Below are positions 1,833 through 58,608 of a stretch of 64,000 bases of DNA, piece after piece. Both the position numbers and the translations under genes were made by a program. The notes below the pieces were generated by a model. It ran no database searches. It saw only the letters and a program-made list of their open reading frames with translations, and was not told where the DNA came from. Each line of letters starts with the position of its first letter. The first letter of the stretch is position 1. This DNA is from a virus (lineage: Duplodnaviria > Caudoviricetes): IMG/VR virus record IMGVR_UViG_3300042294_003246; one strand, written 5' to 3'.

Positions 1833-1992
1833 TAAGTCAAAAGTTGGTTTTGCTCAATAGAGTTAAAGTAATATATTCTTATTACGTATTTCTTCGTATT
1901 TATTAGTAGTCTCGACCGGCCCATGGTAGATGGGGGTTTCCAATAGGATTCTTCAAGTGAGCGTTAAATTTACTTAAACAAGTTTGTACGCA

Positions 1993-4900
1993 ATGAAGAA
2001 TTTATTATTATCGATTTTTGTTTTTATTACAAGTTTTGTTTTTTCACAATCTTGCACACATACGATCAGACTGACTGATACATTTGGTGATGGTTGGAAT
2101 GGAGGTGCGGTTTCTGTATCGGTAAACGGAGTGACTGTATTGAGTAATATAACATTTACTTCAGGATTTGGCCCTGTCAATTTCAATTTTACGGCAGCAA
2201 CTGGTGCTACAATTAGAGTTTGGAGAACTTTAGCGGGAAGTTGGCCAAGTGAAATGAGGGTTCAAATAGTAAACAACACAGGAACAATTCTTTTAAATAC
2301 CATACAACCTGTTACGGGAACAGCAACGACGGGTGGTTATACATGTAATGCTATTTGTTTTATTGTAACTCCAGGTTGCACTAACGTTTCTTCATATGGG
2401 TCTGCAGTTGCTCCATCTACACCAACTACTGTTACAATTAGCTCTTGTAATTTTCAAAGTGAATACAGCACGGTTTCAGGTATTGTTGCTGGTCAAACAT
2501 ATCAATTTGGTTATAGTCTTGGAGGTTATATTACGGTTCATACAGGAACATATAACGGACCTATCGTTGCTTATGGAAATGCACCATTAAATTGGGCATC
2601 AAGTTATACTGGAACCGTTTATGTCCACTACAATACAAATTCAAGTTGTGGAACGACATCTTCATGTGGAACATCTACTGTGACTTGTGTTACTTGTTCC
2701 GCTCCAGCGGCCCCTGCAAATGATTTAGTTTGTAACGCAACACCAATTGTCTGTGGTCAGATGATATCAGGAACAACAGTAAATGCAACTAACAGTGGAA
2801 CGGGAGAAAATGGTATTTGTGGTATTTCACAAACAATGCCAGGTGTTTGGTATAGAGTTACAGGTAATGGTCAAATAATGACCGCTCATTTATGTAATAC
2901 TGCTTGGGATAGTAAAATATCTGTTTTTAGTGGAACTAGTTGTTCCGCATTAACTTGTGTAGGTGGGAATGATGATAACGGACCATTATGTGTTGGAACT
3001 TCAGCATCATATCAATGGACATCAGTTGTTGGACTTAACTATTATATTCTTGTTCATGGATATAGTTCATCAAGTGCATTTCAATTAGGATTAACATGTT
3101 CAACTCCACCACCACCAAACCCAACCTCAATTACAGCAACTTCAAATACAATATGTGTTGGTCAATCAACTACATTAACGGCAAACGGGGCAAGTGGAAC
3201 TGTATATTGGTTTACAGGAGGATGTGGTGTAGGTCAGATTGCAACAGGGAACTCAATAAGTGTAACCCCATCGACAACCACAACATATTACGCAAGAAAC
3301 TACAATGGAGTTCAGTTTAGTAACAATTGTGTGTCTACAACAGTAACGGTAAATAACAATCCGGTCGTATCAACTTCTGCAAGTTTAAGCACAATTTGTC
3401 AGGGTTCATCAACACAACTAAATTCATCTGTTACGGGAGTGTCATCTCCAGGTTCTCTTGCAGTTACAATAACAGGGGGATTATTAGATGAAACAAGTTG
3501 GACTCTAACAAATAATCTTGGAGTTATAATTGGTTCAGGAGGTCCTTATTTCACATCACCTAACGTCACAAATATTGCTTCTTCTGCTAATGGTCCTTAT
3601 GTTTTTTATATTGAAACTATGGGAAGCTGGAATGATAATGTCCCAACCTTTACTATAACTTGTAATGGGTCTACAATACTTTCAGGCTCAATTGGAGGGG
3701 GTTCACAAAATAACTATTGGGTATCAAGTTGCACAACAGCTCCGGTTGTAAATTATATTTGGTCACCATCAACAGGGTTGTCAAACCCAAATATACAAAA
3801 TCCGATAGCAAACCCATCAACTACAACAACCTATACTGTTACTGCAACTTCTAATGGTTGTAGTGGAACTTCAAGTAGAACAATAACCGTAAATCCATTA
3901 CCGAATGTAAGTGCAGGGTCTAATCAAACTGTTTGTTCAGGAACTCAAGTAACACTTAATGGTTCTGGAGCATCAACATACTCTTGGAATAACAGTGTGA
4001 CTAATGGAGTGGCTTTTACACCAACATCAACGCAAACTTATACGGTTACAGGCACAAACGCAAATGGATGTTCTAATACCTCAAGCACTACCGTCACTGT
4101 TCTATCCAATCCTTTGGCAAGCGCAGGAGGGTCTAATAATGGAACATCAACTTGTGGTATAAATCAAGTAACTTTGGGGGCTAACACACCACAAGCGGGT
4201 GAAACAGGAACATGGTCAGTTGTAAGTGGTGTTGGAGGAAGTTTTTCAAATATAAATTCACCCACATCTACGTTTATTGGAAACTATGGCTCAACATATA
4301 CTCTTCAATGGACTGTCTCAAACGGAAATTGTTCTACACCCAATAATATGTTAGTTACATTCAATCAACCAAATGCTTCGTCTTTAGGAGGTGCAATTGG
4401 AACAAACGACTTTTTATGGGGAGGGCTCACTTCTGTTGATTGGTCAACTTCAACAAACTGGTATCAAAAACAAGCTGCAGGACATTTCATTAGAATGTCA
4501 GGAGTTTCACTTCCAACAATAGCAAGTCAGGTTTTTACTTTGGACCAAGTAAATGGCGGAATTTGTATTGGAAACACAACACCAACTTTAAGTGTGAATG
4601 GAGATGCTTATGACGTTTTTATAAATTCAGGAATTACTCTTAATTTAACAAACGACAGTTTGAAAATATCACATGATATCGTAAATAATGGGACATTGAT
4701 CGCAAATACTGGAACTATAAATTTTGTTGGAAATCAAAACTCATCTTTCAATGGAAACGGAACATCACAATTATTTAACATGAAAGTTAATAAATCACAA
4801 GGGGCAACACTAACACTTGGTAACCATGTGAATGTTACTGGTAACTTAAATATGATTCAAGGAAATATTTTTACCTCAAACAACTCCTTATTAACACTAG

Positions 4901-6024
4901 GTTCAAGTAGTTCAAATATAGGTTCATTAACATATAATACAGGAACAATCGTTGGACCGTTCAAAAGATTTTTTAATAATTTATCAACAAACGGTAACGA
5001 GGGACTATTTCCCGTTGGAACTTCAAACTACAACAGATATGCAAGTTTTCAGTTCACAACTTCTCCTGGGGTGAATCAGTCTTTAACTGTTCAATATAAG
5101 AATGGAGCTCCAATTGTTAATGGCACACCTTTATATAATGGACTTCCATTTATGGCCTCAAACGCACTTATTCAAAATTATTCAATTGACGGATATTGGG
5201 AAGTTATACCGACATCAAATAACTATTCGTCTTCAATTTGTCAAACACCGTATAATCTAACTTTATTTGCAAATAACCTTAACGGAATGACAACTCCACA
5301 AATATGCAGAATTATTAAATCTCCTGGTTCAGTTCATACAAGTTGGCAACCATGCGGAAGTCATGTTGCAATACCTGCAAATGCTAATCCAATGGCATTT
5401 TTAATTACAAGCAATAATACACAAGGGTTTAGTTGGTTTAATATTGGGTCGTCTAATTCACAAATTCTTCCTGTTGAGTTATTATCATTTGATGGATCTT
5501 GTAATGATAATGTCATCACATTGGACTGGAAAACAGCAACTGAACATAATTCACATTATTTCGAAATACAAAAATCAAGGGATGGTGAAAATTGGTCTTC
5601 ACTAACAACTTTGGGATCTGCCGGTAACTCAACTCAAGAATTGTCATATACCACAAAAGATGAAAATGCAATCGACGGAAACAATTATTACAAATTAATT
5701 CAATATGATATTGACGGACAATTCAAAGAATATGGACCAATCAATGTGATTTGTAATGGAAACACAAAAGGATATTTTTCAATATTTCCAAATCCAAGTT
5801 CAGGAGATTTTCAAGTTATATTAAATAATAAAAAAATGATTGGTGAAGGACTATTTATAGTTAAGGATACTAAAGGGTCTGAAGTTTATAACCAAGACAT
5901 AAAAGTTTCAACCGGAATAAATTTGTATAATATTTCTGGTTTAAATTTAAGTCCGGGGGTTTATTATGTTAGCATAACTTCTAATGGAATAACTTCTGAA
6001 ACTATAAAACAAATAATAAAATGA
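1993..6024 (+). CDS. Large secreted Ig/PKD-repeat protein with T9SS type A C-terminal sorting domain
   Basis: Signal peptide MKNLLLSIFVFITSFVFSQ; Thr/Ser/Gly/Cys-rich Ig-like repeats; LPVELLSF Ig domain; C-terminal IFPNPSSG...GVYYV motif. ATG at 1993 preferred to TTG at 1984. Confidence 0.9.
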   Translation: MKNLLLSIFVFITSFVFSQSCTHTIRLTDTFGDGWNGGAVSVSVNGVTVLSNITFTSGFGPVNFNFTAATGATIRVWRTLAGSWPSEMRVQIVNNTGTILLNTIQPVTGTATTGGYTCNAICFIVTPGCTNVSSYGSAVAPSTPTTVTISSCNFQSEYSTVSGIVAGQTYQFGYSLGGYITVHTGTYNGPIVAYGNAPLNWASSYTGTVYVHYNTNSSCGTTSSCGTSTVTCVTCSAPAAPANDLVCNATPIVCGQMISGTTVNATNSGTGENGICGISQTMPGVWYRVTGNGQIMTAHLCNTAWDSKISVFSGTSCSALTCVGGNDDNGPLCVGTSASYQWTSVVGLNYYILVHGYSSSSAFQLGLTCSTPPPPNPTSITATSNTICVGQSTTLTANGASGTVYWFTGGCGVGQIATGNSISVTPSTTTTYYARNYNGVQFSNNCVSTTVTVNNNPVVSTSASLSTICQGSSTQLNSSVTGVSSPGSLAVTITGGLLDETSWTLTNNLGVIIGSGGPYFTSPNVTNIASSANGPYVFYIETMGSWNDNVPTFTITCNGSTILSGSIGGGSQNNYWVSSCTTAPVVNYIWSPSTGLSNPNIQNPIANPSTTTTYTVTATSNGCSGTSSRTITVNPLPNVSAGSNQTVCSGTQVTLNGSGASTYSWNNSVTNGVAFTPTSTQTYTVTGTNANGCSNTSSTTVTVLSNPLASAGGSNNGTSTCGINQVTLGANTPQAGETGTWSVVSGVGGSFSNINSPTSTFIGNYGSTYTLQWTVSNGNCSTPNNMLVTFNQPNASSLGGAIGTNDFLWGGLTSVDWSTSTNWYQKQAAGHFIRMSGVSLPTIASQVFTLDQVNGGICIGNTTPTLSVNGDAYDVFINSGITLNLTNDSLKISHDIVNNGTLIANTGTINFVGNQNSSFNGNGTSQLFNMKVNKSQGATLTLGNHVNVTGNLNMIQGNIFTSNNSLLTLGSSSSNIGSLTYNTGTIVGPFKRFFNNLSTNGNEGLFPVGTSNYNRYASFQFTTSPGVNQSLTVQYKNGAPIVNGTPLYNGLPFMASNALIQNYSIDGYWEVIPTSNNYSSSICQTPYNLTLFANNLNGMTTPQICRIIKSPGSVHTSWQPCGSHVAIPANANPMAFLITSNNTQGFSWFNIGSSNSQILPVELLSFDGSCNDNVITLDWKTATEHNSHYFEIQKSRDGENWSSLTTLGSAGNSTQELSYTTKDENAIDGNNYYKLIQYDIDGQFKEYGPINVICNGNTKGYFSIFPNPSSGDFQVILNNKKMIGEGLFIVKDTKGSEVYNQDIKVSTGINLYNISGLNLSPGVYYVSITSNGITSETIKQIIK

Positions 6025-6248: not shown

Positions 6249-6851
6249 ATGAAAGCGATATTCTTGGATCATGATGGTGTAATTTGTCTCTCTAATAACT
6301 GGGCTGGACGATCAAAGAAATGGGCAAAATACCGTTCAGCAAATCCTGACAGTAGTAGGGAAAAGAAAGACGCCCCTGTATTTGTTCGATTTGACGACTT
6401 TGATAAAAAGGCAATTAAAATCCTTAATGAGATTATTGAAGAGACAGGATGTGAGATTGTTGTGAGTTCTGATTGGAGACTTCATGCAAATTTAGAAGAA
6501 CTTGGAGATTACTACATCAGTCAAGGTATTATTAAACGACCAATTGCCTTTACTGATATATTCAAAGACATCTTTCCTAAAGAATGGAACGCTTTTAGAT
6601 TTCGTGCTGATCTAGAACTAGAAAGAAGTATGGAAATTAATCATTGGTTAGATAACCACCCTGAAATAACTCATTGGGTTGCTGTTGATGATTTAAACAT
6701 GAGTTTAGAGTTTTTATCAAAATACTTTTCAGATGGCGAATCTGATAAAAATCCTGGGTTATCTAATTTTGTGTTAACACCAAGATCAAGTGAAGGTATT
6801 AAACAATCTGGAATTAAAGAAAAAATAATTAAATATTTGAAAGATGAGTGA
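6249..6851 (+). CDS. HAD-superfamily phosphatase (Swiss Army Knife RNA-repair-like HAD)
   Basis: IFLDHDGV, IVVSSDWR, WVAVDD motifs; paralogue of 18645. Confidence 0.8.
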   Translation: MKAIFLDHDGVICLSNNWAGRSKKWAKYRSANPDSSREKKDAPVFVRFDDFDKKAIKILNEIIEETGCEIVVSSDWRLHANLEELGDYYISQGIIKRPIAFTDIFKDIFPKEWNAFRFRADLELERSMEINHWLDNHPEITHWVAVDDLNMSLEFLSKYFSDGESDKNPGLSNFVLTPRSSEGIKQSGIKEKIIKYLKDE

Positions 6852-9979: not shown

Positions 9980-10531
9980 ATGATTAACCCAACAGGAAAA
10001 AAATTAGAGAAACTTTTATTTGGAATGTTTGACGACGCCATACAAGGTGTTGATACATATAACCATAATGGTAGTATGTGGTTGATCTTTACTGATGAAA
10101 TGAAATGGGTTGTGGAATACACTAAAGAACAAACACTATGGTATAATTACTATTTCTTCAAAAACGAAATGGAAATGATAAACTTGGATTGTGTTGATAA
10201 TAAAGACCTTATTCAAAAATGGTTTGAGTCAAGATTTTTGAATAAGAATGAGGTTAAAGAAACTGACAAATCTAATTCCAATTATCGTTTGTGTGTTAAA
10301 GACACCATTCAAAATGGTGTAAAAAACACCTGCTGGAATCGTGGAAGCAAAAACACCCGAGTTAAAGACACCATTCAAAATGGGGTAAAAAACACCCGTG
10401 GATATGTAAAACAGATTGATTCGTTGGTTAAAGACACCATTCAAAATGGGGTAAAAAACACCCAAGCCCCTTACCATTCGTTATATGAGTTAGTTAAAGA
10501 CACCATTCAAAATGGGGTGAAAGAAAAATAG
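9980..10531 (+). CDS. Hypothetical protein, conserved ~105-aa N-domain plus 22-aa VKDTIQNGVKNT repeat units
   Basis: Paralogue of 21016 and 21707. Confidence 0.8.
   Translation: MINPTGKKLEKLLFGMFDDAIQGVDTYNHNGSMWLIFTDEMKWVVEYTKEQTLWYNYYFFKNEMEMINLDCVDNKDLIQKWFESRFLNKNEVKETDKSNSNYRLCVKDTIQNGVKNTCWNRGSKNTRVKDTIQNGVKNTRGYVKQIDSLVKDTIQNGVKNTQAPYHSLYELVKDTIQNGVKEK
10295..10528. CRISPR. CRISPR-like array in frame inside ORF 9980: 4 repeats (36 nt), 3 spacers (30 nt)
   Basis: GTTAAAGACACCATTCAAAATGGGGTAAAAAACACC at 10295, 10361, 10427, 10493 (last degenerate); spacers unique, exactly 30 nt. Confidence 0.7.
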
Positions 10532-10566: not shown

Positions 10567-10980
10567 ATGAAGAAGATTTATTTAGACGATGTTAGAACGC
10601 CTGTTGATAAAGAATGGATTGTTGTTCGTTCTTACGATGAGTTCGTTGAAAAAATAAATGAGATTGGTTTGAATAATATCCAACTCATTTCGTTAGATCA
10701 CGATTTGGGTGATACCGCAATTGATGAGTGGAAAAGAAATGTTTATACAAACTACACAATTAATTACGATAACATTACCGAAAAGACCGGTATGGATTGT
10801 GTTAAATGGTTGGTTAATGAATGGATGAATGGTAAACCTGTTGTTGATGTTGTGGTTCATTCACACAACGCAATTGGAAGTGGTAATATGTGTGGTTATA
10901 TCAACAACTACAGACACATCAATCGTTTAAAACAAAATTGCATTAGACTTGAGTGGGATTATACAATAGAAAAAATATAA
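10567..10980 (+). CDS. Cyclic-phosphate processing receiver-domain protein
   Basis: IYLDDVRTP and ISLDHDLG motifs, VHSHN. Confidence 0.8.
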   Translation: MKKIYLDDVRTPVDKEWIVVRSYDEFVEKINEIGLNNIQLISLDHDLGDTAIDEWKRNVYTNYTINYDNITEKTGMDCVKWLVNEWMNGKPVVDVVVHSHNAIGSGNMCGYINNYRHINRLKQNCIRLEWDYTIEKI

Positions 10981-10983
10981 GAA

Positions 10984-11508
10984 ATGGATTTAACTAAACT
11001 AACAATGGACGAACTTATTTCTTTAAGAAATAAAATTGAAGGACTTATTCATTCATATGAGGACGGTTATATCTACATATGTTCTGTTCGTCAGTTCGGT
11101 AGTGTTTGGGAAGAAAGACCAACCAGTCTGTATTCATTAAGGGAATTGTGTGATTCTTATTACGGCGACAATGGAATTGTTGATGTTTATACCAATAATC
11201 CAAATTTGGAATTTCCTGAAATGGAGTTTTATAATTATGGTGATGTTATGTATATCAATTCAGAATATGATTACAGGGAGTGGATTAAACACACTAAGGC
11301 TAAAAATCTTATTGAAGATGTAACTGAACGACTTGATGAGTGGGACAAAAGTAAAGATAAACCATTTCAATACCGACCATCTTCCAAACCAATATGGACA
11401 AGAGAAGATGTTAGTGAATGGATTAAAGAGTTTGAAAATACCAAGTGGGATTTTGTTGAACCAAGATCTATGAAGAAAGAATATTCTGAAGAAGATAGTG
11501 ACGAATAA
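10984..11508 (+). CDS. Hypothetical protein
   Basis: 174-aa ORF. Confidence 0.7.
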   Translation: MDLTKLTMDELISLRNKIEGLIHSYEDGYIYICSVRQFGSVWEERPTSLYSLRELCDSYYGDNGIVDVYTNNPNLEFPEMEFYNYGDVMYINSEYDYREWIKHTKAKNLIEDVTERLDEWDKSKDKPFQYRPSSKPIWTREDVSEWIKEFENTKWDFVEPRSMKKEYSEEDSDE

Positions 11509-11532
11509 AAAAAATATTATTATTTTTGTAAA

Positions 11533-12660
11533 ATGGAAAATTTAAATAGTGTTGCATATGTAGGTAAAGTTGGTGTTCCAACTCAAATACCAGGTGCTGA
11601 TAATATAGAACTTGTTACGGTTAATGGTTGGATGGCCATAACCAAAAAAGGTGAATATAAAGAAGGAGACTTGGTTGTTGTTGCAACTACTGACGCTGTA
11701 ATACCACAAGAATTATCTGATAGTATGGGAGTAACTGGTTACCTTCGTAAAGGTCAACGAGTTAGAACCGTGAAACTTCGTGGAGTTTACTCTGAATGTT
11801 TAATAATACCAACTAAATACATACCCGGATATGGAGATCAATATTACGAGGGTATGGATATGATGGAAAGGTTGGGTATATTCAAATACGAACCTCCTGT
11901 TAAGATGGTTGAAATGAGTGTTGGTGGAAGAAAAATCAAATACTACCAAAATCCAAACTTCCATGTTTACTATAAGTTTCCAAATCAAAAGAATGTGCCC
12001 GATATGTTCAATGAAGAGGACGAAGTGGTTATAACAAGAAAACTTCACGGAACTAATGCTCGTTATGCGATAGTTAGGAAGAAAAAACTTTCTTTGTGGG
12101 ACCGAGTTAAAATATTCTTCGGTGATAAATGGAAGGCCTTTGATTACATCTATGGGTCTCATAATGTTGAGAAAGGATCTGACTCACAAGGGTTTTATTC
12201 TACAGATGTTTGGGATGAGGTTGCAAAAAAATACAATATCCGATCAAAACTTTGGAATCACCTAAAAGATACTTACAATCCTGAAGATTTGGAACAGGGT
12301 TTTATTATATATGGTGAAATATATGGTGCTGGCATACAAAAAAACTATGACTATGGTTTATCTGATATAAAATTTGCAGGATTTGATGTTGAGGTTGATG
12401 GAGAATACGAACCATATATGAGAGAAAAAACACACTTCGAGGTAATGGATTTACCACAAGTTGATGTGTTATATCATGGTAATTGGAATAAAGAAGAACA
12501 AGACAAATACGTCTTCAACAACTTTATTGAAGGATCTAAAGTTCCTCATGAAGGTGTTGTTGTAAAGTCAATTACCGGTGATCGTCACAAAGTGGCAAAA
12601 GTTATCAATCCTGACTATTTGATCTACGGAGAAAAAAATAATGTTGGTGACTCCCATTAA
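11533..12660 (+). CDS. RNA ligase (DRB0094/Rnl2-like family)
   Basis: N-terminal IPGADNIE...GQRVRTVKLRGVYSE OB-like region; motif I KLHGTN; IYGEIYG, FAGFDV, HEGVV, KVIN. Confidence 0.9.
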   Translation: MENLNSVAYVGKVGVPTQIPGADNIELVTVNGWMAITKKGEYKEGDLVVVATTDAVIPQELSDSMGVTGYLRKGQRVRTVKLRGVYSECLIIPTKYIPGYGDQYYEGMDMMERLGIFKYEPPVKMVEMSVGGRKIKYYQNPNFHVYYKFPNQKNVPDMFNEEDEVVITRKLHGTNARYAIVRKKKLSLWDRVKIFFGDKWKAFDYIYGSHNVEKGSDSQGFYSTDVWDEVAKKYNIRSKLWNHLKDTYNPEDLEQGFIIYGEIYGAGIQKNYDYGLSDIKFAGFDVEVDGEYEPYMREKTHFEVMDLPQVDVLYHGNWNKEEQDKYVFNNFIEGSKVPHEGVVVKSITGDRHKVAKVINPDYLIYGEKNNVGDSH

Positions 12661-17423: not shown

Positions 17424-17870
17424 ATGAAAATAATAATAACAGAAAGTCAGTATAATCTTTTATTTGAAAATAAAAAAAATCAATCTTTAATTGATATTAT
17501 TAAAGAAGAAGGTTGGGAATCTGCCGCTGAATTAGTTGGAGGTATTGAGAATCTTAAAAAATTGACAGGAATTGAAACTCCTATAGATTTTTTAAATATT
17601 TTTACTGATTTGGATGTTGTTCAGAGTGAAGAAGAACCTAATTGGACTTTATTTAGGTATGAAAAAAAAAATAATGTAATGATTTACGATAGAAAAAATA
17701 ACAATGTTTATATATATTATGATGTTATTTGGCCATTTTTAGAAGAAGGTTTTGATCTTAAAAACTCTGAAATACAACAACTTACAGAAGAGTGGTTGTC
17801 TGAGGCTTACAATTTGAGGGGAGTAACAACTTATCCATCTATAATGGGTCGGCACTCATTAGTTGTCTGA
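17424..17870 (+). CDS. MKIIITE-leader hypothetical protein ending in a CRISPR-like unit
   Basis: Paralogue of 47879. Confidence 0.75.
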   Translation: MKIIITESQYNLLFENKKNQSLIDIIKEEGWESAAELVGGIENLKKLTGIETPIDFLNIFTDLDVVQSEEEPNWTLFRYEKKNNVMIYDRKNNNVYIYYDVIWPFLEEGFDLKNSEIQQLTEEWLSEAYNLRGVTTYPSIMGRHSLVV

Positions 17871-17880
17871 GGCTTACAAT
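17795..17880. CRISPR. Mini-array: 36-nt type VI-B-like repeat, 31-nt spacer, 19-nt partial repeat
   Basis: GTTGTCTGAGGCTTACAATTTGAGGGGAGTAACAAC (17795-17830); exact copy of first 19 nt at 17862-17880. Confidence 0.65.
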
Positions 17881-18009: not shown

Positions 18010-18645
18010 ATGAAAGTTATATTCTTGGATATTGATGGAGTTATGAACTCTAATGTTTTTTATAAAGAAAGACATAGAAGACGATGGAGAAAACCTATCA
18101 CATGGTGGTATGAATTAAAGCGATTGGTTAGAAAATTGTTTAGAATTAAATCAAAAGGAGTTTCTTTGGCGGATTATAAACCACCTAAAAAGTCTTTCAC
18201 TTTTGAATATCAATTCAAGGATTTACGAGAAGAAACTTGTGATCAAAAGTGGAAATGGTTGAGCGAATGGTGTAATAAAACTAACACAAAAATTTGTGTT
18301 TCTTCGAGTTGGAAACATCACTTTCGTATTGAGGATCATATATCAACACCTTATAGATGGGAAGACGCATTTGTTAAACTTGGATTTAAACCAGGAACTT
18401 ATGTAGGAATCACTGGTAATAGAAGAACTTTACGAGGTGAAGAAATTAAAGAGTGGTTGGATCAACACCCTGAAGTTGATGATTACGCAATATTAGACGA
18501 TGATTCAGATATGTTGACAGAACAATTTTCAAAGTTCCATCACTGTGACACTTGGTTTGGTTTATCCCCAAACCACTTGTATAGAATTGGAAGACAATTT
18601 GAAAACAAAAGTAATTACGAAAGATTAACACAAACAATAAGATAA
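18010..18645 (+). CDS. HAD-superfamily (Swiss Army Knife RNA-repair-like) protein
   Basis: IFLDIDGV, VSSSW, RGEEIKEWL, YAILDDDSDM. Confidence 0.85.
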   Translation: MKVIFLDIDGVMNSNVFYKERHRRRWRKPITWWYELKRLVRKLFRIKSKGVSLADYKPPKKSFTFEYQFKDLREETCDQKWKWLSEWCNKTNTKICVSSSWKHHFRIEDHISTPYRWEDAFVKLGFKPGTYVGITGNRRTLRGEEIKEWLDQHPEVDDYAILDDDSDMLTEQFSKFHHCDTWFGLSPNHLYRIGRQFENKSNYERLTQTIR

Positions 18646-19232
18646 TGAAAGTTATATTCTTAGATCATGATAGTGTAATTTGTCTCTCTAATAATTGGGG
18701 TAGTCGTTACAAAAAACAACACAAATGGGGAGGAAGAAAATTATCCATGACCCCAAGAGAAATTCCGGTGCAATATCGTTTTGATGACTTTGATAAAGGG
18801 ACAATTAAAGTTCTAAATGAGATCATTGAAGAAACTGGATGTGAAATAGTGGTAAGTTCTGATTGGAGATTACATGCAACACTTGATGAACTTGGTGATT
18901 ACTATATTAGTCAAGGTATTATTAAACGACCAATTGCGGTGACTGACATATTTAGAGACCTTTTTCCAAAAGAATGGAATGCGTTTAGATTTCGTGCTGA
19001 GTTGGAATTAGAACGAAGTATGGAGATCGGACATTGGTTAAAGAATCATCCTGAAGTCACACATTGGGTTGCGATTGATGATCTTAATATGAGTCTTGAG
19101 TTTTTATCAAAATACTTCTTGGATAGTGAGGATAAAAACCCTGGTCTAACTAATTTTGTTTTAACACCAAGATCAAGAGAAGGTATTAAACAAAGTGGGA
19201 TTAAAGAAAAGGTTATTAATTTTTTAAAATGA
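18645..19232 (+). CDS. HAD-superfamily protein, paralogue of 6249
   Basis: IFLDHDSV (G to S), VVSSDWR, VAIDD. Confidence 0.8.
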   Translation: MKVIFLDHDSVICLSNNWGSRYKKQHKWGGRKLSMTPREIPVQYRFDDFDKGTIKVLNEIIEETGCEIVVSSDWRLHATLDELGDYYISQGIIKRPIAVTDIFRDLFPKEWNAFRFRAELELERSMEIGHWLKNHPEVTHWVAIDDLNMSLEFLSKYFLDSEDKNPGLTNFVLTPRSREGIKQSGIKEKVINFLK

Positions 19233-21015: not shown

Positions 21016-21585
21016 ATGAAAAATCCATCAGGAAAAAAATTAGATAAGATTTTGTTCAAACTATTTGACCAAATGATTGAAGGTGTTGACCAATACAATC
21101 ATAGTGGTAGTTTATGGATCATCTTTACCAATGAACGACAATGGGTTGTTGAATATACCGAAGGAGGAACTCTATGGTATAACTACAAACTATTCAAAAA
21201 TGAAATGGAATTGGTTGGTATGGATTGCGTTGAAAATAAAGAATACATAACCAGATGGTTTGAATATAGATTTTTGAATAAACCAAAGGTTGATAAAACT
21301 TGGGACAATCCGGTAGATGTGTGGTATCAAATTGAAGACACCATTCAAAATGGGGTGAAGAACACCAAGGTTAGGTCCGCATTGCGCAGGATATCAGTTG
21401 AAGATACCATTCAAAATGGGGTGAAACACACCGGCGGAAAATTGGCTTCGCTGGCCGACCTGGTTGAAGACACCATTCAAAACGGGGTAAAGGAGACCCA
21501 AGAGTGGCGTTTGGATGCGACTCATTATATTATAGACACAATTGAAAATGGAGTGAAACAAACAAAACGAAGTTATGATGGTTAA
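21016..21585 (+). CDS. Paralogue of 9980 with in-frame repeat-spacer units
   Basis: MKNPSGKKL N-domain plus xEDTIQNGVK units. Confidence 0.8.
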   Translation: MKNPSGKKLDKILFKLFDQMIEGVDQYNHSGSLWIIFTNERQWVVEYTEGGTLWYNYKLFKNEMELVGMDCVENKEYITRWFEYRFLNKPKVDKTWDNPVDVWYQIEDTIQNGVKNTKVRSALRRISVEDTIQNGVKHTGGKLASLADLVEDTIQNGVKETQEWRLDATHYIIDTIENGVKQTKRSYDG

Positions 21586-21702
21586 AGAAAACAGAGAACG
21601 AAATATGTCGTTGAAAATGGGGTGAAACACACTACAGGAACATCAACTGACTTACGATATAAAAGGGTTGAATATACCATTCAAAACGGAGAAAAAATTA
21701 AA
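21331..21702. CRISPR. CRISPR-like array: repeats at 21331, 21397, 21463, 21529 and degenerate 21598, 21667
   Basis: 36-nt repeats; spacers 30,30,30,33,33 nt; first three spacers 47-63% GC; array continues past the ORF stop. Confidence 0.7.
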
Positions 21703-21706
21703 TAAA

Positions 21707-22897
21707 ATGAATAATCCATCAGGAAAAAAATTAGAGAAACTTGTCTTTGGGTTGTTTGACCAAATGATTGAAGGTGCAGACAAGTATATTACAGAACAAG
21801 GTTCAACTTGGTTGATCTTTACCGAAGACAAAAGATGGGTGGTTGAATTCACAAAAGATAAAACTTTGTGGTTCAACTATAACCTATTTCAAAATGAGTT
21901 AGATCTAGTCAGTAAGGACTGCACTCAAGAAAGAGATTTGATCAAGAACTGGTTTGAATCAAGATTTTTGGGTATTGATGTGGTTGAGGAAAGTTTAAGC
22001 ACTGCTGGAAAACCATTGAAGGTTAAAGATACCATTCAAAATGGGGTGAAACACACTTGGGATTTAAATGCGGATGAAATTTCTGCAGTTAAAGACACCA
22101 TTCAAAATGGGGTAAGACACACCGATTATTTTGAATATACTAATAATACCTTAGTTGAAGATACCATTCAAGAGGGGGTGAAAGAAACCAATTACAAAAT
22201 TGGTTACCGAAAAGGTGGTATTGAAATCGCAATTCAAAATGGTGTAAAAGAAACACGAACATTCAATTCACCACCAATTAAATACATTGAAGACACCATT
22301 CAAAATGGGGTGAAAGAAACAACACCTAGTGGTTATTTGGGTTCAATGGAGATGAAAGGGAAAATAGTTCATCAAATTGAATCTCCAAAACAAAATAATG
22401 AGGTTGAAGACACCATTCAAAATGGGGTAAGACACACCGAAGTAGATGGGATGAGGATAAGGAGTGGGGTTAAGGACGCCATTCAAAATGGAGTAAAGGA
22501 CACTGTGTTAGCAAAAACGGATAGATTAGTCGGTATTGAAGACACCATTCAAAGTGGTATTAAAGACGTATCTGATAGACCATTCACATTTGGATCAAGT
22601 ATTGATGATGCCATTGAAAATGGTGTTAAAGAAACTAGAGAGGTAACATTCTTGAACCAAATGTTTATTGAAGAAACAATTGAAAAAGTTACACCAGATG
22701 GTGGAGTTGAAATTCCTTCTGATATGAAAGTTGGAACTGGATTGATGAATATGGTAAAAGAATTACGTGATAATGAATGGAGAACATTTGAACATCACGA
22801 TAATTGGATTAAAAACGAACATTATCCAAATCCAACATTTGAACAACAATTTGATACAGGTAATGCTTATAAAGAAATGTTAAAAACTAAAATTTAA
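21707..22897 (+). CDS. Paralogue of 9980 with ~10 repeat units and unrelated C-terminal tail
   Basis: Start placed at ATG 21707 (MNNPSGKK) by paralogy. Confidence 0.8.
   Translation: MNNPSGKKLEKLVFGLFDQMIEGADKYITEQGSTWLIFTEDKRWVVEFTKDKTLWFNYNLFQNELDLVSKDCTQERDLIKNWFESRFLGIDVVEESLSTAGKPLKVKDTIQNGVKHTWDLNADEISAVKDTIQNGVRHTDYFEYTNNTLVEDTIQEGVKETNYKIGYRKGGIEIAIQNGVKETRTFNSPPIKYIEDTIQNGVKETTPSGYLGSMEMKGKIVHQIESPKQNNEVEDTIQNGVRHTEVDGMRIRSGVKDAIQNGVKDTVLAKTDRLVGIEDTIQSGIKDVSDRPFTFGSSIDDAIENGVKETREVTFLNQMFIEETIEKVTPDGGVEIPSDMKVGTGLMNMVKELRDNEWRTFEHHDNWIKNEHYPNPTFEQQFDTGNAYKEMLKTKI
22022..22702. CRISPR. CRISPR-like array: repeats at 22022, 22088, 22154, 22220, 22286, 22403, 22469, 22535, 22601, 22667
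   Basis: Eight 30-nt spacers and one 81-nt; repeats degenerate toward the right. Confidence 0.65.
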
Positions 22898-37688: not shown

Positions 37689-38372
37689 ATGTTAGGATTA
37701 AGAAAGGTTGAACCTGGTAGATGGAGAAATGATTGGATGGAGTTTTACCCTGGATTCCATAAATGGAATTTAAGATACCTACCAAGTAATGGATTAAATT
37801 GGAAATTAGATTTTTGTTTTATTTGGGGTCAATTTTATATGACATTCAAAACAAACAAACCACCAAAATATAAGGATGAAAGACCAAAATATGGATTTTA
37901 TTTTTATTCGGTAGGTAGTTGGTTTCCTGATTCATTATGGATCCATAGAGGAACAAAAAAAATAAAATGTATTGATTTACCTTGGCAATATGATTGGGTA
38001 AGAACATCCAAATTTCTAAAAGATGGAACATGGGCACACCAAACCAAAAAAAATAAAATTGATTTTTATACTCCTGAATGGAAAGAAAAAATCCATAAAG
38101 AAACACATAAATACTATTACATTCACGACGATTTGTTCCAAGATACTGAGGCCACTTGTAAGTTAGAGGAAAGAGAATGGAGACCAAGAATGTTCAGGTG
38201 GACACGACTTTTTAGAAAAGTAAGACGAAGTATTGATGTTGATTTCAGTAATCCGATTGGGAAAGGTGTTGATTCATATAAAGGAGGAACTTATGGTGCG
38301 GGACACGACACTAATAAAGGTGAGACAATTAAACAATGTCTTAAAAGAATGATGAAAGAAAGAAAATTTTAA
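37689..38372 (+). CDS. Hypothetical aromatic-rich protein
   Basis: 227-aa ORF. Confidence 0.7.
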   Translation: MLGLRKVEPGRWRNDWMEFYPGFHKWNLRYLPSNGLNWKLDFCFIWGQFYMTFKTNKPPKYKDERPKYGFYFYSVGSWFPDSLWIHRGTKKIKCIDLPWQYDWVRTSKFLKDGTWAHQTKKNKIDFYTPEWKEKIHKETHKYYYIHDDLFQDTEATCKLEEREWRPRMFRWTRLFRKVRRSIDVDFSNPIGKGVDSYKGGTYGAGHDTNKGETIKQCLKRMMKERKF

Positions 38373-38388
38373 CAACAAAAAATAAATT

Positions 38389-38700
38389 ATGACAGGAAAA
38401 TACCTAATTACAACAGACAGATATTTTGTCGCACCTGACGGAAAAACTTATACCGCAGTTTGGGGTGATGTTAATATTTTAGAAGACTCCATTCTCGGAG
38501 TTAAAACGAACAGAAATAGTGCCAACTGGTATGCGATGGTTGGTAAAAATGGTAAAGAAATTACTATTGCGGGATGTCAAATATTTTACGCTATTAAGTG
38601 TGAGGAAAAACCATACACAGAAGACGTGGAAGATTGGACGGTTGATAATGGTAAGTTTGATACATACGTAAGACCAACTAAAATTTACATCGCAGAATAA
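38389..38700 (+). CDS. Hypothetical protein
   Basis: ORF. Confidence 0.7.
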   Translation: MTGKYLITTDRYFVAPDGKTYTAVWGDVNILEDSILGVKTNRNSANWYAMVGKNGKEITIAGCQIFYAIKCEEKPYTEDVEDWTVDNGKFDTYVRPTKIYIAE

Positions 38701-38727
38701 CACTCAACAATTAAAGTTTATTAAATT

Positions 38728-39276
38728 ATGAAAAAAAAAATTTCACAAGAAGAAATTCAAGAAATTGAAAGATTAACAGGGGGAAAAATTGGAACACATA
38801 CATTTGGACCAAACAACGAAAACACATTGGAAAATTCATTCTTATCGCCTGATGGAACATATATCGGTAGTATTGATGAAGCAAGATGGTATGTTAAAAA
38901 TAAAATGATGGTTGATGAAAATTATCCCCACGGAGTTGCTGCGGTTATTATCGAAGATACATATGGAACTGATAACCCTGTTATCGAAGGGATGTATGGA
39001 TACACTCACAGAGGTGGTAGTCTTTTCAAAATCGGAGATAGATTATTTGATGGGGATTATGAACCCGTTAAAGAAGATTACCCTGAAGAACAATGGAATG
39101 AATACGAAACAAAGTTCGCGGATTTATATCAAGAAGAAGATGAACTTGGTAGAAAATGGATGGATGAAGACGGAATATCTTATGTAATACCATTCAAATT
39201 AAGAGGATCAAAATTGATTGAAACAATGGAAGAAGCATTTGAAGCCGCTAAAAATATGTCAAATTATTTAAGTTAA
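38728..39276 (+). CDS. Hypothetical protein
   Basis: ORF. Confidence 0.7.
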   Translation: MKKKISQEEIQEIERLTGGKIGTHTFGPNNENTLENSFLSPDGTYIGSIDEARWYVKNKMMVDENYPHGVAAVIIEDTYGTDNPVIEGMYGYTHRGGSLFKIGDRLFDGDYEPVKEDYPEEQWNEYETKFADLYQEEDELGRKWMDEDGISYVIPFKLRGSKLIETMEEAFEAAKNMSNYLS

Positions 39277-43306: not shown

Positions 43307-43819
43307 ATGAATAAGTTTGATTTAACCGAAAAATTGAAAGAAGAATTAAAAAAAAGAAATCTTTGGGAACAAGAAGATGATGAAGATAATGATGATAATG
43401 AGTCTGATGATAATCAAGATGACGAAGATTCAGACGAAGATTCAGAAAATCATAACGAAGATTTCTGTGAAATGGTTTGTCAGTTATTACACTCACAAAC
43501 ACAAATTCATATTTTCCATTTAGGGACCAAATCATATGCCGAACATAAAGCATTACAGGGTTATTACGAAGGTATTGATGCTTTAACTGATGGTCTAATT
43601 GAATCTTATCAGGGTAAATATGGTCTTTTAACAAATTACAAATCATATAAGAATCAATCATACAAAAACAAAAACCAAGTATTAAAATATTTTACAAGTT
43701 TATTAAATATGATTGAAGAAAAAAGAGAATCGGTTGAGGACTCTTACATCCAAAACCAAATTGATACGGTTCAAGAATTGATTTATTCAACAATGTATAA
43801 GTTGAAATTTCTTAACTAA
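43307..43819 (+). CDS. Ferritin-like DUF5856 protein with acidic N-terminal linker
   Basis: Q.HIFH..T.SYAEHKAL..YY....L.D.L.ESYQG.YG. Confidence 0.75.
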   Translation: MNKFDLTEKLKEELKKRNLWEQEDDEDNDDNESDDNQDDEDSDEDSENHNEDFCEMVCQLLHSQTQIHIFHLGTKSYAEHKALQGYYEGIDALTDGLIESYQGKYGLLTNYKSYKNQSYKNKNQVLKYFTSLLNMIEEKRESVEDSYIQNQIDTVQELIYSTMYKLKFLN

Positions 43820-44634
43820 TCTATTTCGTAAATATTATTTATTACATTCAGAGGATCTCCTTCACAATCACCTTCATAATTTCGGCATAGTTGGTCGACT
43901 TCAATCTTGTCGTCAACCTCACTGATATCAAGTAATATTGGTTCTGAATGATATATCATATTAACTTGATCATCGTTCAAGAATGTATCTACAGGTAATG
44001 ATTTAAGTTCAGGGTTCAAACCAAAAAAATCAATTTCATCTTCTGTATAGTATTCATCACTTGATTCATAGTCACCATTTCCATCACAATAATCACAATC
44101 AACTTGTCCATAACCATCACATCTATCACAGCCAAATTCACCTTTACCATCACACCAAGAACATTCAATTTCACCATTTCCTTGACAATCTGAACATGGT
44201 TCACCATCTACTTCACCAGATCCATCACAGTTTCTACATTCTTCAGTTCCATTTCCTGAACATCTATCACAATCTACATCACCACTACCATCACATGTGC
44301 TACAATATTCAGTTCCTGATCCATCACATTCATGACAAGTTATATCACGATAACCCAAATCTCTATAATGATACATTCCGATGTTTATAAGATTACCACG
44401 AACTTTAGAAAAAGAAGATTCAATATCTTTAGTTCGTGAAAAGAAGTAAACCATAAACGCGATCTCTACTTTTTCTATTCTTTTAACATTCTTCAAAAGA
44501 AGTTTCAATAGTTCATCACTATTGATATGACTCATAATTTGTTGAACATTCATATCATTATCACCATGTTCATCAACTAAATGATTATAAACTTGTTTTG
44601 TGAATACTTTATATTTTGAAGGTTGTAAGGACAT
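43816..44634 (-). CDS. Protein with DnaJ-type CxxCxGxG zinc-finger repeats
   Basis: Eight tandem CxxCxG[N/S/K/Y]G motifs; no J-domain HPD. Confidence 0.75.
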   Translation of the reverse strand: MSLQPSKYKVFTKQVYNHLVDEHGDNDMNVQQIMSHINSDELLKLLLKNVKRIEKVEIAFMVYFFSRTKDIESSFSKVRGNLINIGMYHYRDLGYRDITCHECDGSGTEYCSTCDGSGDVDCDRCSGNGTEECRNCDGSGEVDGEPCSDCQGNGEIECSWCDGKGEFGCDRCDGYGQVDCDYCDGNGDYESSDEYYTEDEIDFFGLNPELKSLPVDTFLNDDQVNMIYHSEPILLDISEVDDKIEVDQLCRNYEGDCEGDPLNVINNIYEID

Positions 44635-47496: not shown

Positions 47497-47879
47497 AAAT
47501 AATAATTTCAGAACGACAACAAAAGTTATTAACCGAGTCAAAAAAACTTGAGTCGGCACAAAATCTTATTGATCAGGCATTTGAGGAATTAAGAGAAAAC
47601 TGTGAAAAAAATTGGGTTGAACAATATGCTTGTGATCAAATGGAAACCGTTGAAGAGATTAAAGTTGTTGCATCTGAAAAAGGATCAGCGACCACAAGAG
47701 GTCAAAAAACTAATTTTTGGTTGATTGAAGTTGACATATATTATTCATCATTAGGATATACACCTTTTGAAGATTTTATTTATCAAATCCAATGGGAAGT
47801 TAGAGAAATTGTCGGATCAAGAAATATTATTATAACCATCCGAGGTACTATAAACTCAAACAAAGACCTAAACTGGTAA
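47493..47879 (+). CDS. MKIIISE-leader hypothetical protein
   Basis: ORF. Confidence 0.7.
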   Translation: MKIIISERQQKLLTESKKLESAQNLIDQAFEELRENCEKNWVEQYACDQMETVEEIKVVASEKGSATTRGQKTNFWLIEVDIYYSSLGYTPFEDFIYQIQWEVREIVGSRNIIITIRGTINSNKDLNW

Positions 47880-48322
47880 TGAAAATAATAATATCAGAAT
47901 CACAATATAATTTACTTTTAGAATCAAAGTTGAAACAAAATCTTAAACAGGAAATTAAAGATTTTGGAGTAAAAGATACTGCTGAACTTGTTAATGGTTT
48001 CGATAATTTAATGGAAATTTTAAACATAAATTCTCCGATGGATTTTTTACATTTGTTTGATGACTTGGATGTTGTTCAAAGTGAAATGGACCCTGATTGG
48101 ACTTTATTTCGATATAAACCAAAACATAATTTGATGGTTCACAATAGAAAAAATAGAACTGTTTTCATTAATTACGAAGAAATTTGGAAACCTTTATTTG
48201 ATACTGGTCTTTTCGATCCTGACATAAAGGAACTTACAAAAGAGTGGTTGTCTAGTGTCTACAACTTAAGGGGAGTCACAACCGAAAGGTTTTATCAAGC
48301 TTCTCCATGGTTAGTTGTCTAG
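47879..48322 (+). CDS. MKIIISE-leader protein, paralogue of 17424, ending in a CRISPR-like unit
   Basis: Shared FLHLF.DLDVVQSE..WTLFRY...WLS..YNLRGVTT. Confidence 0.75.
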   Translation: MKIIISESQYNLLLESKLKQNLKQEIKDFGVKDTAELVNGFDNLMEILNINSPMDFLHLFDDLDVVQSEMDPDWTLFRYKPKHNLMVHNRKNRTVFINYEEIWKPLFDTGLFDPDIKELTKEWLSSVYNLRGVTTERFYQASPWLVV

Positions 48323-48333
48323 TGTCTACAATT
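48247..48333. CRISPR. Mini-array: 36-nt repeat, 31-nt spacer, ~19-nt partial repeat
   Basis: GTTGTCTAGTGTCTACAACTTAAGGGGAGTCACAAC (48247-48282); first 18 nt recur at 48314. Confidence 0.6.
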
Positions 48334-56599: not shown

Positions 56600-57255
56600 T
56601 GGATAACGAAAAAATATTAAAACTATTCAAACATTTTGCAGGTGATCCTTTGGACATACATGGTTTGGTTGTTACACCCGTTAAAGTAGAACCATCTGTT
56701 AGAAGAAATGGTAGAACTAACATGTATTTCAGAGTTCAAAACCCGAATGATGTTTCATATTTTTCACCAATTGTTGGGGATTATATTTATGATGAAACAG
56801 AAGACTTTGGGGATTTTGTAAATGAAAAAATTGATGTGTATTTTGTACCAAACTTTAAACAAGGAATTTATTTAAATGAAGAATTAAAATCAAGAATTCA
56901 AAAAGTGTTTAATTCCGTTAAAGAGATTAATTTTACATTAGGAACTCCTTTTATTGGTTATGAAAGATACAAATTATTTATTGAATCAGTTGGTGTATCA
57001 ACAAGTTATTGGGATAATGAAAGTTTTGGTTTATACAATAATGTGAAAGTAGTAAGAGCCGAAAAAGATGGTGAGTGGTGGGATCCTAAAGTTGTTGTAA
57101 GTGAATATCTTAATGACTTTCTACCTGACAAAGAAAGTTACTGGGAAACAGAAAATCTTTACCCCCAAATTGACAACATCTTAAACAATTATCCCCTATT
57201 TAGGGATCCATACGGCAACAATTTAGGTTACTACGATACCAAGTTTATCCAATAA
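56599..57255 (+). CDS. Hypothetical protein
   Basis: ORF. Confidence 0.7.
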   Translation: MDNEKILKLFKHFAGDPLDIHGLVVTPVKVEPSVRRNGRTNMYFRVQNPNDVSYFSPIVGDYIYDETEDFGDFVNEKIDVYFVPNFKQGIYLNEELKSRIQKVFNSVKEINFTLGTPFIGYERYKLFIESVGVSTSYWDNESFGLYNNVKVVRAEKDGEWWDPKVVVSEYLNDFLPDKESYWETENLYPQIDNILNNYPLFRDPYGNNLGYYDTKFIQ

Positions 57256-58519
57256 CTTTTTTTGATCTTTTTTTACGGTGAAAAGAAATCACAAATCTGT
57301 GAACTTCATTTTGAACTTCAGCAAGCAAAAATCCAAACTCATTTCGTGGAATATCAAATGACGACCCGTCAGTCAAGTGGATTGTTTGAGATTGGTGTTT
57401 GTCGTTTTTGGAAATAGAAATCAAATCAATACGAGATAACAAACCAAGAGATTCAAATACTTGTTTTGCAACACCCAACTGACCTTTACCACCATCAATA
57501 ACAACAAGTGAAGGTAACTCTTGTTTTTCGTTCAAAAGTCTTGTAAAACGACGAGAAAGAACTTCAGTGAATGAAGCGTAGTCATCAGGACCCTCAACAG
57601 TTTTGATGTTAAACTTACGGTAGTTTGACTTATCAGTTTTACCATTCTTGTAACGAACAAGAGCAGACACTTGACAGTCACCACTAGTGTGAGAATTGTC
57701 AAACGCCTCAATCAAAGTAGGAACATTGATAAGACCCAAAGATTCTTTAAACTGACGAGCAACATCATTATACTTTCTAACACGAAAAGGTTCAAGTTTC
57801 TTTTGAAGTGAATCAACAACAGAGATTTTAGTTTTGAACTCTTGAGCTTTCTCAAACTCCATAGAATCAGAAAAATATTTCATAGACTTTTTCAAACGAC
57901 TACGAACCTTGTCAAACTCAAAAGAAAATACTTCTTTCATCTCACTTACAATCTTCTTGTAGGAGAACTTTAGAATGTTTGAAATACAAGGTGCATTACA
58001 ACGACCAAGATGAAACTCCAAACAAGTTTTGAACTTTTCGTTTGAAATGTTTTCTTCAGTCAAGTTGTAAGAACAAGAACGAAGATTGAAGATGTCGTGA
58101 ACCATTTCATAGATCTCATAACAAGAGTTGGAACTTGTAGACTCAAGAAGGATCTGACCTGAAAAGTTAGAAGGATTACAAACTTGTAAACGAGGGAACT
58201 CCTCATCACTCAAAGTAATAAACCAACGACGAGATCTGTCGTCTTTTGCTTTGATGTTGTATTTTGGTTTCAAAGACTTGATAAGTTCGTCCTCCAACAA
58301 AAGAGCCTGTGACTCATCGTTAGTAGTCATGAACTCAACATCACGGATCTCACTCACAAGAGAAGTAGTCTTGATATCCTTGTGATTTTTTTGAAAGTAA
58401 GACTTCACTCGTTTCGGTAAAAACTTTGACTTACCCACATAGATGATCTGACCCTTCTCATTTTTGAAAAGGTAACAACCACTTGATTGGGGAATGTTTG
58501 AAAGTTTCTCTGTAATCAC
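57245..58519 (-). CDS. uvrC: Excinuclease ABC subunit C (lacks C-terminal HhH)
   Basis: GCYLFK...IYVGKSK.L..RV.SYF; PKYNI; EFEKA; IEAFDNSH; DDYAS; IDGGKGQ; RFVISFHR. GTG start at 58519 behind TATATTTG. Confidence 0.93.
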   Translation of the reverse strand: MITEKLSNIPQSSGCYLFKNEKGQIIYVGKSKFLPKRVKSYFQKNHKDIKTTSLVSEIRDVEFMTTNDESQALLLEDELIKSLKPKYNIKAKDDRSRRWFITLSDEEFPRLQVCNPSNFSGQILLESTSSNSCYEIYEMVHDIFNLRSCSYNLTEENISNEKFKTCLEFHLGRCNAPCISNILKFSYKKIVSEMKEVFSFEFDKVRSRLKKSMKYFSDSMEFEKAQEFKTKISVVDSLQKKLEPFRVRKYNDVARQFKESLGLINVPTLIEAFDNSHTSGDCQVSALVRYKNGKTDKSNYRKFNIKTVEGPDDYASFTEVLSRRFTRLLNEKQELPSLVVIDGGKGQLGVAKQVFESLGLLSRIDLISISKNDKHQSQTIHLTDGSSFDIPRNEFGFLLAEVQNEVHRFVISFHRKKRSKKVIG

Positions 58520-58608
58520 AATACAAATATAGTGAAAATCTTTCAAATAATAACATAAACATCATAAACTTTCATTGGCCCAAACCTAATTATTTTTTTG
58601 TCGTATTT

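Follow-up and report, generated by a model that had tools for sequence, protein, structure and literature searches.

CRISPR arrays are known as non-coding RNA genes. Viruses carry CRISPR repeats too, as mini-arrays or as single repeat units with no cas genes alongside. These virus-borne copies are short and either non-coding or incidental; we know of none that has been reported as growing, translated and supplied with host-derived spacers. Conserved blocks that flank unrelated short cassettes are found in cyanobactin precursors and in the repeat-flanked variable regions of phage receptor-binding proteins. Huge phages commonly carry arrays without cas genes, some with spacers that match the host chromosome (PMC7162821). 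In Flavobacterium columnare, a type VI-B array that has no Cas1 of its own is filled in trans by the Cas1-Cas2 of a type II-C system, often with spacers from the host genome, and the repeats of both systems are 36 bp long (PMC8092290).

The locus considered here lies in 64,000 nucleotides of DNA from an uncultured Caudoviricetes phage (IMG/VR record IMGVR_UViG_3300042294_003246), a stretch that we refer to as the window. Array 1 makes up the 3′ third of a plus-strand gene for a 183-residue protein (P0001, 9980–10531), in which the motif VKDTIQNGVKNT alternates with 10-residue cassettes after an N-terminal domain of about 90 residues. This domain, alpha/beta in the AlphaFold2 model and spanning residues 1 to ~91 (9980–10252), corresponds, if the gene is viewed as an array, to the conserved "leader" side. 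It is followed by a 12-nt half repeat (VKET; 10253–10264), which is kept in the closest homologues, and by a first 30-nt unit (DKSNSNYRLC; 10265–10294), which is conserved in the clade of the array 1 gene and gave no host match in a BLAST query spanning the unit. Four 36-nt repeats then start at 10295, 10361, 10427 and 10493, with a period of exactly 66 nt. The second and third copies (10361–10396 and 10427–10462) are identical, the first (10295–10330) is 1 nt off them (GGT for GGG), and the terminal one (10493–10528) keeps its first 27 nt, is degenerate at its 3′ end and is followed by the stop codon TAG (10529–10531). The three spacers (10331–10360, 10397–10426 and 10463–10492) are each 30 nt long, have no mutual kinship and are free of stop codons in the frame of the gene.

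Our re-scan of the sequence bore out the geometry described in the original prediction, which had listed the four in-frame repeats with their 30-nt spacers and 66-nt period, the identity of repeats 2 and 3, the single difference in repeat 1, the unrelated, stop-free spacers, and the half repeat exactly 30 nt 5′ of repeat 1. The CCATT-CAA-AATGG hairpin that it proposed does exist as an inverted repeat, but its stability is unremarkable (−5.1 kcal/mol, z = −0.8 versus shuffles; z = −0.3 for the whole array), and RNA structure of the repeat or the array reached no significance against shuffled sequence. No CRISPR repeat family in Rfam matched the array repeat, and chance matches to it were absent from 100 shuffles. 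The same repeat is present in two more genes of the window (21016–21585 and 21707–22897). Array 1 has the near-identical direct repeats of 23–50 bp and the unique spacers of constant length by which CRISPR arrays are recognized, and in 60 related genes 383 of the 503 inserts measure exactly 30 nt.

Because the array is plainly protein-coding, it was at first judged to be an unusual repeat protein, a judgement that the protospacer test described below reversed. The consensus unit of the family is 66 bp long and consists of a 36-bp repeat (12 codons, [VI][EK]DTIQNGVKxT) and a 30-bp insert (10 codons). A protein search of metagenomic sequences returned 1,820 homologues of P0001 at E ≤ 0.001, whose lengths step by 22 residues, and the N-terminal domain alone, used as the query, retrieved 290 cluster representatives, of which nearly all carry the motif tail. 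Across 565 repeats in 60 distinct genes, drawn from 80 IMG/VR loci, variation falls mainly at third codon positions, and second codon positions are 83–100% conserved (most of them at least 96%). Arrays of up to 26 units contain no stop codon, and the frame stays open in more than 1,800 metagenomic homologues. This pattern of variation indicates that the array tail is translated and that the repeat is under purifying selection at the amino acid level. An in-frame period, amino acid conservation and synonymous variation are all expected of a tandem-repeat protein, and all are found here. Kinship of whole units by descent, which would also be expected, is not: inserts are unrelated unless they are nearly identical, and they derive from bacterial genes.

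The cassettes themselves are conserved as peptides in up to 60 proteins, and kindred variants have a dN/dS of ~0.26. This value and the fixation of many cassettes across phages suggest that the units are long-lived protein parts rather than a fast-turning record, although the low dN/dS may come in part from host-gene polymorphism in cassettes captured in frame. The original prediction had named fixed spacer peptides across divergent phages, with synonymous-only variation, as the observation that would count against spacer acquisition; the widely conserved cassettes go part of the way toward it.

AlphaFold2 models residues 1–89 with a pLDDT of ~88 and leaves the tail unstructured. A model of the tail by itself, built on 97 four-unit segments aligned in register, had a pLDDT of 40 and showed only short, low-confidence helices; as modeled, the array tail forms no solenoid and is probably disordered. 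No relative of the N-terminal domain was found among solved structures (best Z 4.9), and fold searches of the PDB, AFDB, BFVD, VIA-wide and ESM Atlas collections returned uncharacterised viral proteins only. Pfam and PHROGs searches with the three paralogues of the window gave nothing usable, phrog_3806 being a weak match only, and none of 50,697 isolated phages was matched by tblastn. The family is a large one of uncultured lake phages that probably infect Bacteroidota. Contigs of relatives that cover the family gene occur in RNA libraries (strand not shown), which is weak evidence for its transcription. In the long related contigs G001 (292 kb), G002 (273 kb), L007, L008, L033 and L074, the family gene sits 1–4 kb from a contig end, which suggests that assemblies break at this variable locus.

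The origin of the inserts became apparent when 24-nt cores of the three array 1 spacers were compared with 185,579 species genomes. Five exact matches were obtained for spacer 1, one for spacer 3 and none for spacer 2, with ~0.004 expected per query, and all fall within ordinary bacterial genes of freshwater Flavobacteriales MAGs. The five MAGs matched by spacer 1, all freshwater, comprise two Crocinitomicaceae (Lake Mendota), one Cryomorphaceae, one Flavobacteriales and one Bacteroidota. Over its full length, spacer 1 (10331–10360) agrees with these MAGs (L129–L133) at 29 of 30 positions, with unrelated flanks. BLAST also reports it at 100% over 30 nt in G411–G413, a match offset by one base that comprises 29 spacer bases and the first base of the next repeat. 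It lies sense to a gene that we take to be of the LemA family, in another frame (AGIVEAKTPE in the host, CWNRGSKNTR in the phage). Spacer 3 (10463–10492) agrees at 30 of 30 positions with L134/G616 and at 27 of 30 (90%) with G415, and is both sense to and in frame with a 452-aa gene, giving QAPYHSLYEL in host and phage alike. Spacer 2 (10397–10426) has a weak match of 24/27 in G411 and in G560 (E ~0.008 each), presumably at one locus in both genomes. Identity ends exactly at the spacer edges, and no repeat lies beside the protospacers.

The second array gave the same result. Paralogue 2 (P0002) and its array occupy 21016–21705 on the plus strand (open reading frame 21016–21585), and within the array span 21331–21462 two GC-rich spacers (21367–21396 and 21433–21462) are copies of genes in the same host genomes. 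One matches a 370-aa gene at 28 of 30 positions in antisense orientation; the other lies in frame in what appears to us to be a sugar-isomerase-like gene, at 29/30 in G411 and 30/30 in G560. The protospacer targets of the two arrays sit on different contigs of the same MAGs. Thus, 5 of the 6 spacers in arrays 1 and 2 match one narrow bacterial clade, four at 28–30 of 30 positions and one weakly, and for those four the spacer is a copy of other DNA with identity confined to the spacer, as in a CRISPR array. The inserts of arrays 1 and 2 copy 30-bp stretches of ordinary chromosomal genes, from both strands and in no fixed frame, and these genes belong to freshwater Flavobacteriales of one narrow clade (Crocinitomicaceae/Cryomorphaceae MAGs). 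We presume that this clade is the phage host. Type IX secretion sorting domains (Por_Secre_tail, CHU_C) occur in phage proteins at 1984–6024 and 60246–60815, in agreement with a Bacteroidota host. The original prediction had named a protospacer search as one way to examine its view that spacers were captured and filtered for an open frame; the matches to Flavobacteriales genes by the cores of spacers 1 and 3, and the protospacers of 29–30/30 that end at the spacer edges, lend support to that view.

The matches are narrow in distribution. Only 3 of 201 genomes of the host family match, and ~50 spacers of two more distant relatives (L005, L072) found no match in the five MAGs. Against 401 evenly drawn Flavobacteriales genomes, a sample that missed the relevant clade and in which few candidates were scored per genome, array 1 gave chance matches in the repeats only. 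The three array 1 spacers had no exact match in IMG/VR, and the window and the 80 related loci contained no protospacers, scores being equal to those of the shuffled control. Paralogue 3 (P0003, 396 aa; 21707–22897, plus strand) has a C-terminal extension and an older array, in which the repeats are more diverged, and its spacers had no clear host match, only weak ones (E ~0.009). Paralogues 2 and 3 share the N-terminal domain and the motif with P0001; their repeats have diverged as DNA but keep their amino acids.

The composition of the inserts fits this origin. Cassettes are close to translated random DNA in amino acid composition, and their GC content, 38% with a variance near the binomial, exceeds the 31% of the phage; peptides of random character and a GC content like that of the host are what host DNA taken up in arbitrary frames would give. 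In-frame sense fragments would be enriched among the inserts because they cannot contain stops. Pairs of cassettes are either near-identical or unrelated, with nothing between, and cassettes are not derived from one another by frame shift or inversion. The repeats, for their part, use codons atypical for the genome (ACC for Thr, 0.87 versus 0.13; GGG for Gly, 0.66 versus 0.10), have a normalised codon entropy of 0.31–0.43 versus 0.68 in the N-terminal domain, and are nearly invariant at the synonymous sites of codons 1–7. Copying of the neighbouring repeat at each insertion would account for the wobble-identical repeats, the shared atypical codons and the low synonymous diversity.

Phages that are otherwise nearly identical differ by the loss, gain or exchange of units. 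The contig L001 is the window sequence minus one exact 66-nt unit, the one that holds spacer 2. In array 2, the window has one unit more than L026, and L030 has one cassette cleanly replaced. Cassettes far from the N-terminal domain are commonly shared across genes, those proximal to it are variable, and their order is conserved; this pattern, together with the degenerate terminal repeat, could reflect growth at the leader end, yet internal gains, losses and swaps occur too. Among genes with N-terminal domains more than 90% identical, the mean Jaccard index of cassette content is 0.19. The three spacers of array 1 were nevertheless found unchanged in lake metagenomes from 2016 to 2024, and over years, therefore, turnover is not fast. 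The Logan contigs do not resolve the gain or loss of units, since the repeat exceeds the assembly word in length. Acquisition had been called recent in the original prediction; the near-exact matches and wobble-identical repeats agree with this, but the same spacers across 2016–2024 do not allow it to be fast over years. One case shows what happens when an insert contains an in-frame stop. In paralogue 2, TAA (21583–21585) lies inside a longer inserted unit (45 nt), two vestigial in-frame repeat-like units follow it, and relatives L026 and L030 read through at this point; a unit of this kind truncates the protein and leaves in-frame remnants (21583–21705).

We consider it likely that array 1 is a translated CRISPR-like array of captured host DNA whose units were written in trans by a Cas1-Cas2-type activity. 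A repeat of 36 and an insert of 30 nt sum to a number divisible by three, so each new unit adds 22 codons without shifting the frame. Insertion would be of the ruler type and would duplicate the repeat next to it, in the manner of Cas1-Cas2, and new units would persist where an open frame survives. The agent is most likely to be the adaptation complex of the host, acting in trans on the phage repeat. Constant insert length, duplication of the repeat and the apparent polarity all point to integration with a Cas1-Cas2-type ruler.

The repeat itself bears some likeness to those of type VI-B systems. Its reverse complement shares G[GT]TG-N10-CATTTTG[AG]A[GT]GGT-N5-[CT]AAC with real 36+30 arrays, and this joint pattern, built from the array repeat itself and the Bergeyella zoohelcum repeat, retrieved genuine arrays from Bergeyella, Capnocytophaga, Riemerella, Chryseobacterium, Prevotella and others. 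Repeats of the array type (type 1) agree with the Bergeyella repeat at 19–21 of 36 positions, in exact register and on the minus strand. This places them in the top 0.03–0.07% of all windows; 88, 35 and 10 of 127,930 windows reach 19, 20 and 21 matches, an empirical tail of 0.7e-4 to 7e-4. The 5′ end of the reverse complement is GGTG, not GTTG, and the variable stretches are dissimilar to VI-B repeats; we read the resemblance, judged from sequence, as real but modest. A second type of repeat occurs in the window, in two small paralogous genes (17424–17870 and 47879–48322) whose 3′ ends consist of a 36-nt repeat (GTTGT...ACAAC), an insert of 31 nt and the exact first 19 nt of the repeat once more, which supply the stop codon (17795–17880 and 48247–48330). 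Its two copies co-vary between the paralogues (GAGGC versus AGTGT), and it agrees with the Bergeyella Cas13b repeat at 20–22 of 36 positions, among the best of 127,930 windows; hhalign detected no homology between the array family and this second repeat-bearing family. In one Flavobacteriales genome, G395 (L125, 1501–1546), a small open reading frame ends in ...FEDINKAIENAIQRG, and this 3′ end matches a repeat unit of L072 with 87% identity across 46 nt (E = 5e-7), the match being to the repeat and not to a spacer.

A search for the enzyme that writes the units was made in phages and hosts. No Cas1 was found in two related phage genomes that are 93–99% complete or in the five protospacer MAGs, which are incomplete, and no Cas family was found among the scanned window open reading frames of at least 110 aa. 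A CRISPR array is as a rule accompanied by cas genes of its own genome, at least Cas1-Cas2, or by a host array that shares its repeat; in the genomes searched neither was seen, and no array with this repeat was present in the five MAGs or in the 185,579 species genomes. Cas1 is encoded by 57 of 201 host-family genomes (28%), and the four arrays seen beside ten of these Cas1 genes have repeats that are unrelated to the phage repeat and look to us like Cas12a-type and long type II-type repeats. Beside the four protospacers we saw neither a PAM of the F. columnare type nor any other (n = 4, too few to define one), and the TTTANNNNN/NNNNNTAAA motif is absent from all four. In the 80 loci, no enzyme candidate consistently adjoins the family gene.

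The window is an accessory region that carries genes for RNA repair and for anti-defence. Side by side at 37689–39276 lie a homologue of Acb3, which inhibits CBASS, and one of Tad6, which inhibits Thoeris (Pfam E = 4e-31 and 4e-14). The RNA-repair set is an expanded one, with three paralogous HAD_SAK_2 phosphatases, a cREC receiver domain and an RNA ligase (6249–6851, 18010–19232 and 10567–12660), and the cREC gene is the next one after the array gene in 29 related loci. The window also encodes a UvrC-like GIY-YIG/RNase H endonuclease (57245–58546, minus strand) and a complete Y-family (UmuC/DinB-type) DNA polymerase (61511–62743, plus strand). A further 66-nt period, at 44190–44316 in the minus-strand gene 43816–44634, has no relation to the arrays and is an ordinary duplication within a Cys-rich zinc-finger protein of the DnaJ type. 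Two other ideas about the family were set aside: a diversity-generating retroelement target (no RVT_1 family was found in two near-complete relatives, and cassettes are unrelated rather than point variants) and a graspetide or a set of prohead-protease sites, for which no support was found.

An ordinary tandem-repeat protein would have arisen by duplication of units, with diverged linkers, a motif homogenised by gene conversion, and bacterial matches due to chance or unrelated transfer. Such a protein would have the third-position variation, the conserved cassettes in fixed order, the dN/dS of ~0.26 and the family-wide open frame that are seen. It would not explain why 5 of 6 spacers match one narrow clade when ~0.004 matches are expected per query, why identity stops at unit edges with arbitrary orientation and frame, or why pairs of linkers lack residual similarity, and we regard it as very improbable. 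If host-DNA capture is real, the writer could still be something other than Cas1-Cas2, an unrecognised phage or host enzyme that inserts 30-bp pieces, with a convergent likeness to CRISPR. The failure to find Cas1 in related phages and protospacer MAGs, the unrelated host repeats and lack of a matching host array, and the lack of a recognisable PAM make such a writer a live rival, and the window is rich in unannotated genes and has the Y-family polymerase and several GIY-YIG nucleases. Against it, the exact 36+30 geometry, the inserts of constant length, the duplicated repeat and the apparent polarity are the marks that Cas1-Cas2 integration leaves, filling in trans by a foreign Cas1-Cas2 is documented in the same bacterial order (PMC8092290), MAGs often come without CRISPR loci, and no candidate enzyme is a constant neighbour of the gene. 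We consider a non-Cas writer rather unlikely, though well worth keeping in view.

Other alternatives concern the product. The array could act as RNA, with minus-strand guide RNAs loading host Cas13b against host transcripts, or with plus-strand mRNA mimicking antisense array RNA, and translation merely tolerated. The register-exact likeness to VI-B repeats is on the minus strand, 3 of 4 protospacers are sense on the plus strand, which would make a minus-strand RNA antisense to host mRNAs (a three-to-one strand ratio that is not significant), the synonymous sites of repeat codons 1–7 are nearly invariant, and huge phages carry arrays without cas genes but with host-targeting spacers (PMC7162821). 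Repeat variation, however, follows the codon phase of the plus strand, frames stay open over up to 26 units, the repeat folds no better than shuffles, and the host MAGs showed no Cas13b or VI-B array; an RNA product seems to us improbable. A multi-core precursor of RiPP type, in which the N-terminal domain would be the leader, the 12-mers recognition sites and the 10-mers released peptides, would match the conserved recognition sequences that flank hypervariable cores and the predicted disorder of the tail. RiPP precursors have maturation enzymes beside them, whereas neither the scanned window open reading frames nor the conserved neighbours in 80 loci included an ATP-grasp enzyme, protease, cyclase or other maturation enzyme, and the cassettes are host DNA in random frames, so that this role is extremely unlikely.

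Returning to the translated array of captured host DNA, its pay-off may be at the level of protein (variable cassettes on a disordered tail) or of RNA (guide-like transcripts), or may be absent. Conservation of the motif and cassettes at the protein level argues that the polypeptide may matter. The near-invariant synonymous sites and the VI-B-like reverse strand leave room for a possible role at the level of RNA or DNA, for example as an integration target. One tentative possibility is that the phage family uses CRISPR-type spacer integration to diversify a protein, with heritable 10-residue cassettes placed between constant 12-residue motifs and with selection keeping open frames and useful cassettes.

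An array-like structure with host-derived spacers is here kept as an open reading frame, and thousands of phage genes conserve the amino acids of its repeat. If Cas1-Cas2 is the writer of the units, phages can offer integration targets to the adaptation machinery of the host and carry the result in their own genomes, which would matter for how adaptation picks its target. Host assignment of uncultured phages would then be possible, the spacers pointing to Crocinitomicaceae-like bacteria, and the arrays could act as natural recorders of past infections. Should the peptides matter, the array represents a new way of diversifying proteins, and if the protein-diversifying reading is true, it would be the first repeat-spacer array with a polypeptide read-out. 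Either way, the family offers a testable link between CRISPR adaptation and protein-coding sequence. In the literature searched, we found no description of a translated repeat-spacer array with host-derived spacers. The elements that appear new are in-frame, selected translation and the conserved protein context, and the closest known systems are the cas-less arrays of phages and the VI-B arrays filled in trans.

As in cassette-type hypervariable proteins, the cassettes of array 1 are shuffled by recombination between conserved blocks; unlike in those proteins, where cassettes come from mutation or silent copies, they are fixed-length copies of host DNA in any frame. The second repeat type of the window (17795–17880, 48247–48330) is closer to the virus-borne mini-array kind than array 1 is. 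With type VI-B arrays, array 1 shares the 36-bp repeat (PMC8092290) and, in the 30-bp spacer and 66-nt period, the geometry of genuine arrays in Bacteroidota. Read on the reverse strand, the phage repeat modestly resembles VI-B repeats in its central CATTTTG.A.GGT block and its ends. Also as in VI-B arrays, the bacterial lineage is the same, the locus has no cas1 or cas2 of its own and host-genome spacers are common (PMC8092290). It differs from VI-B systems in that the matched MAGs yielded neither Cas13b nor a II-C locus nor a repeat like that of the phage, and from VI-B arrays in that it sits in a phage, inside an open reading frame, in the opposite orientation to the coding strand. Like the arrays of huge phages (PMC7162821), it is phage-borne and compact, with no Cas1, Cas2 or Cas4 found in the phage sequence, and its spacers match presumed host bacteria of the same kind of habitat; unlike those non-coding arrays, it is the in-frame tail of a conserved protein gene.
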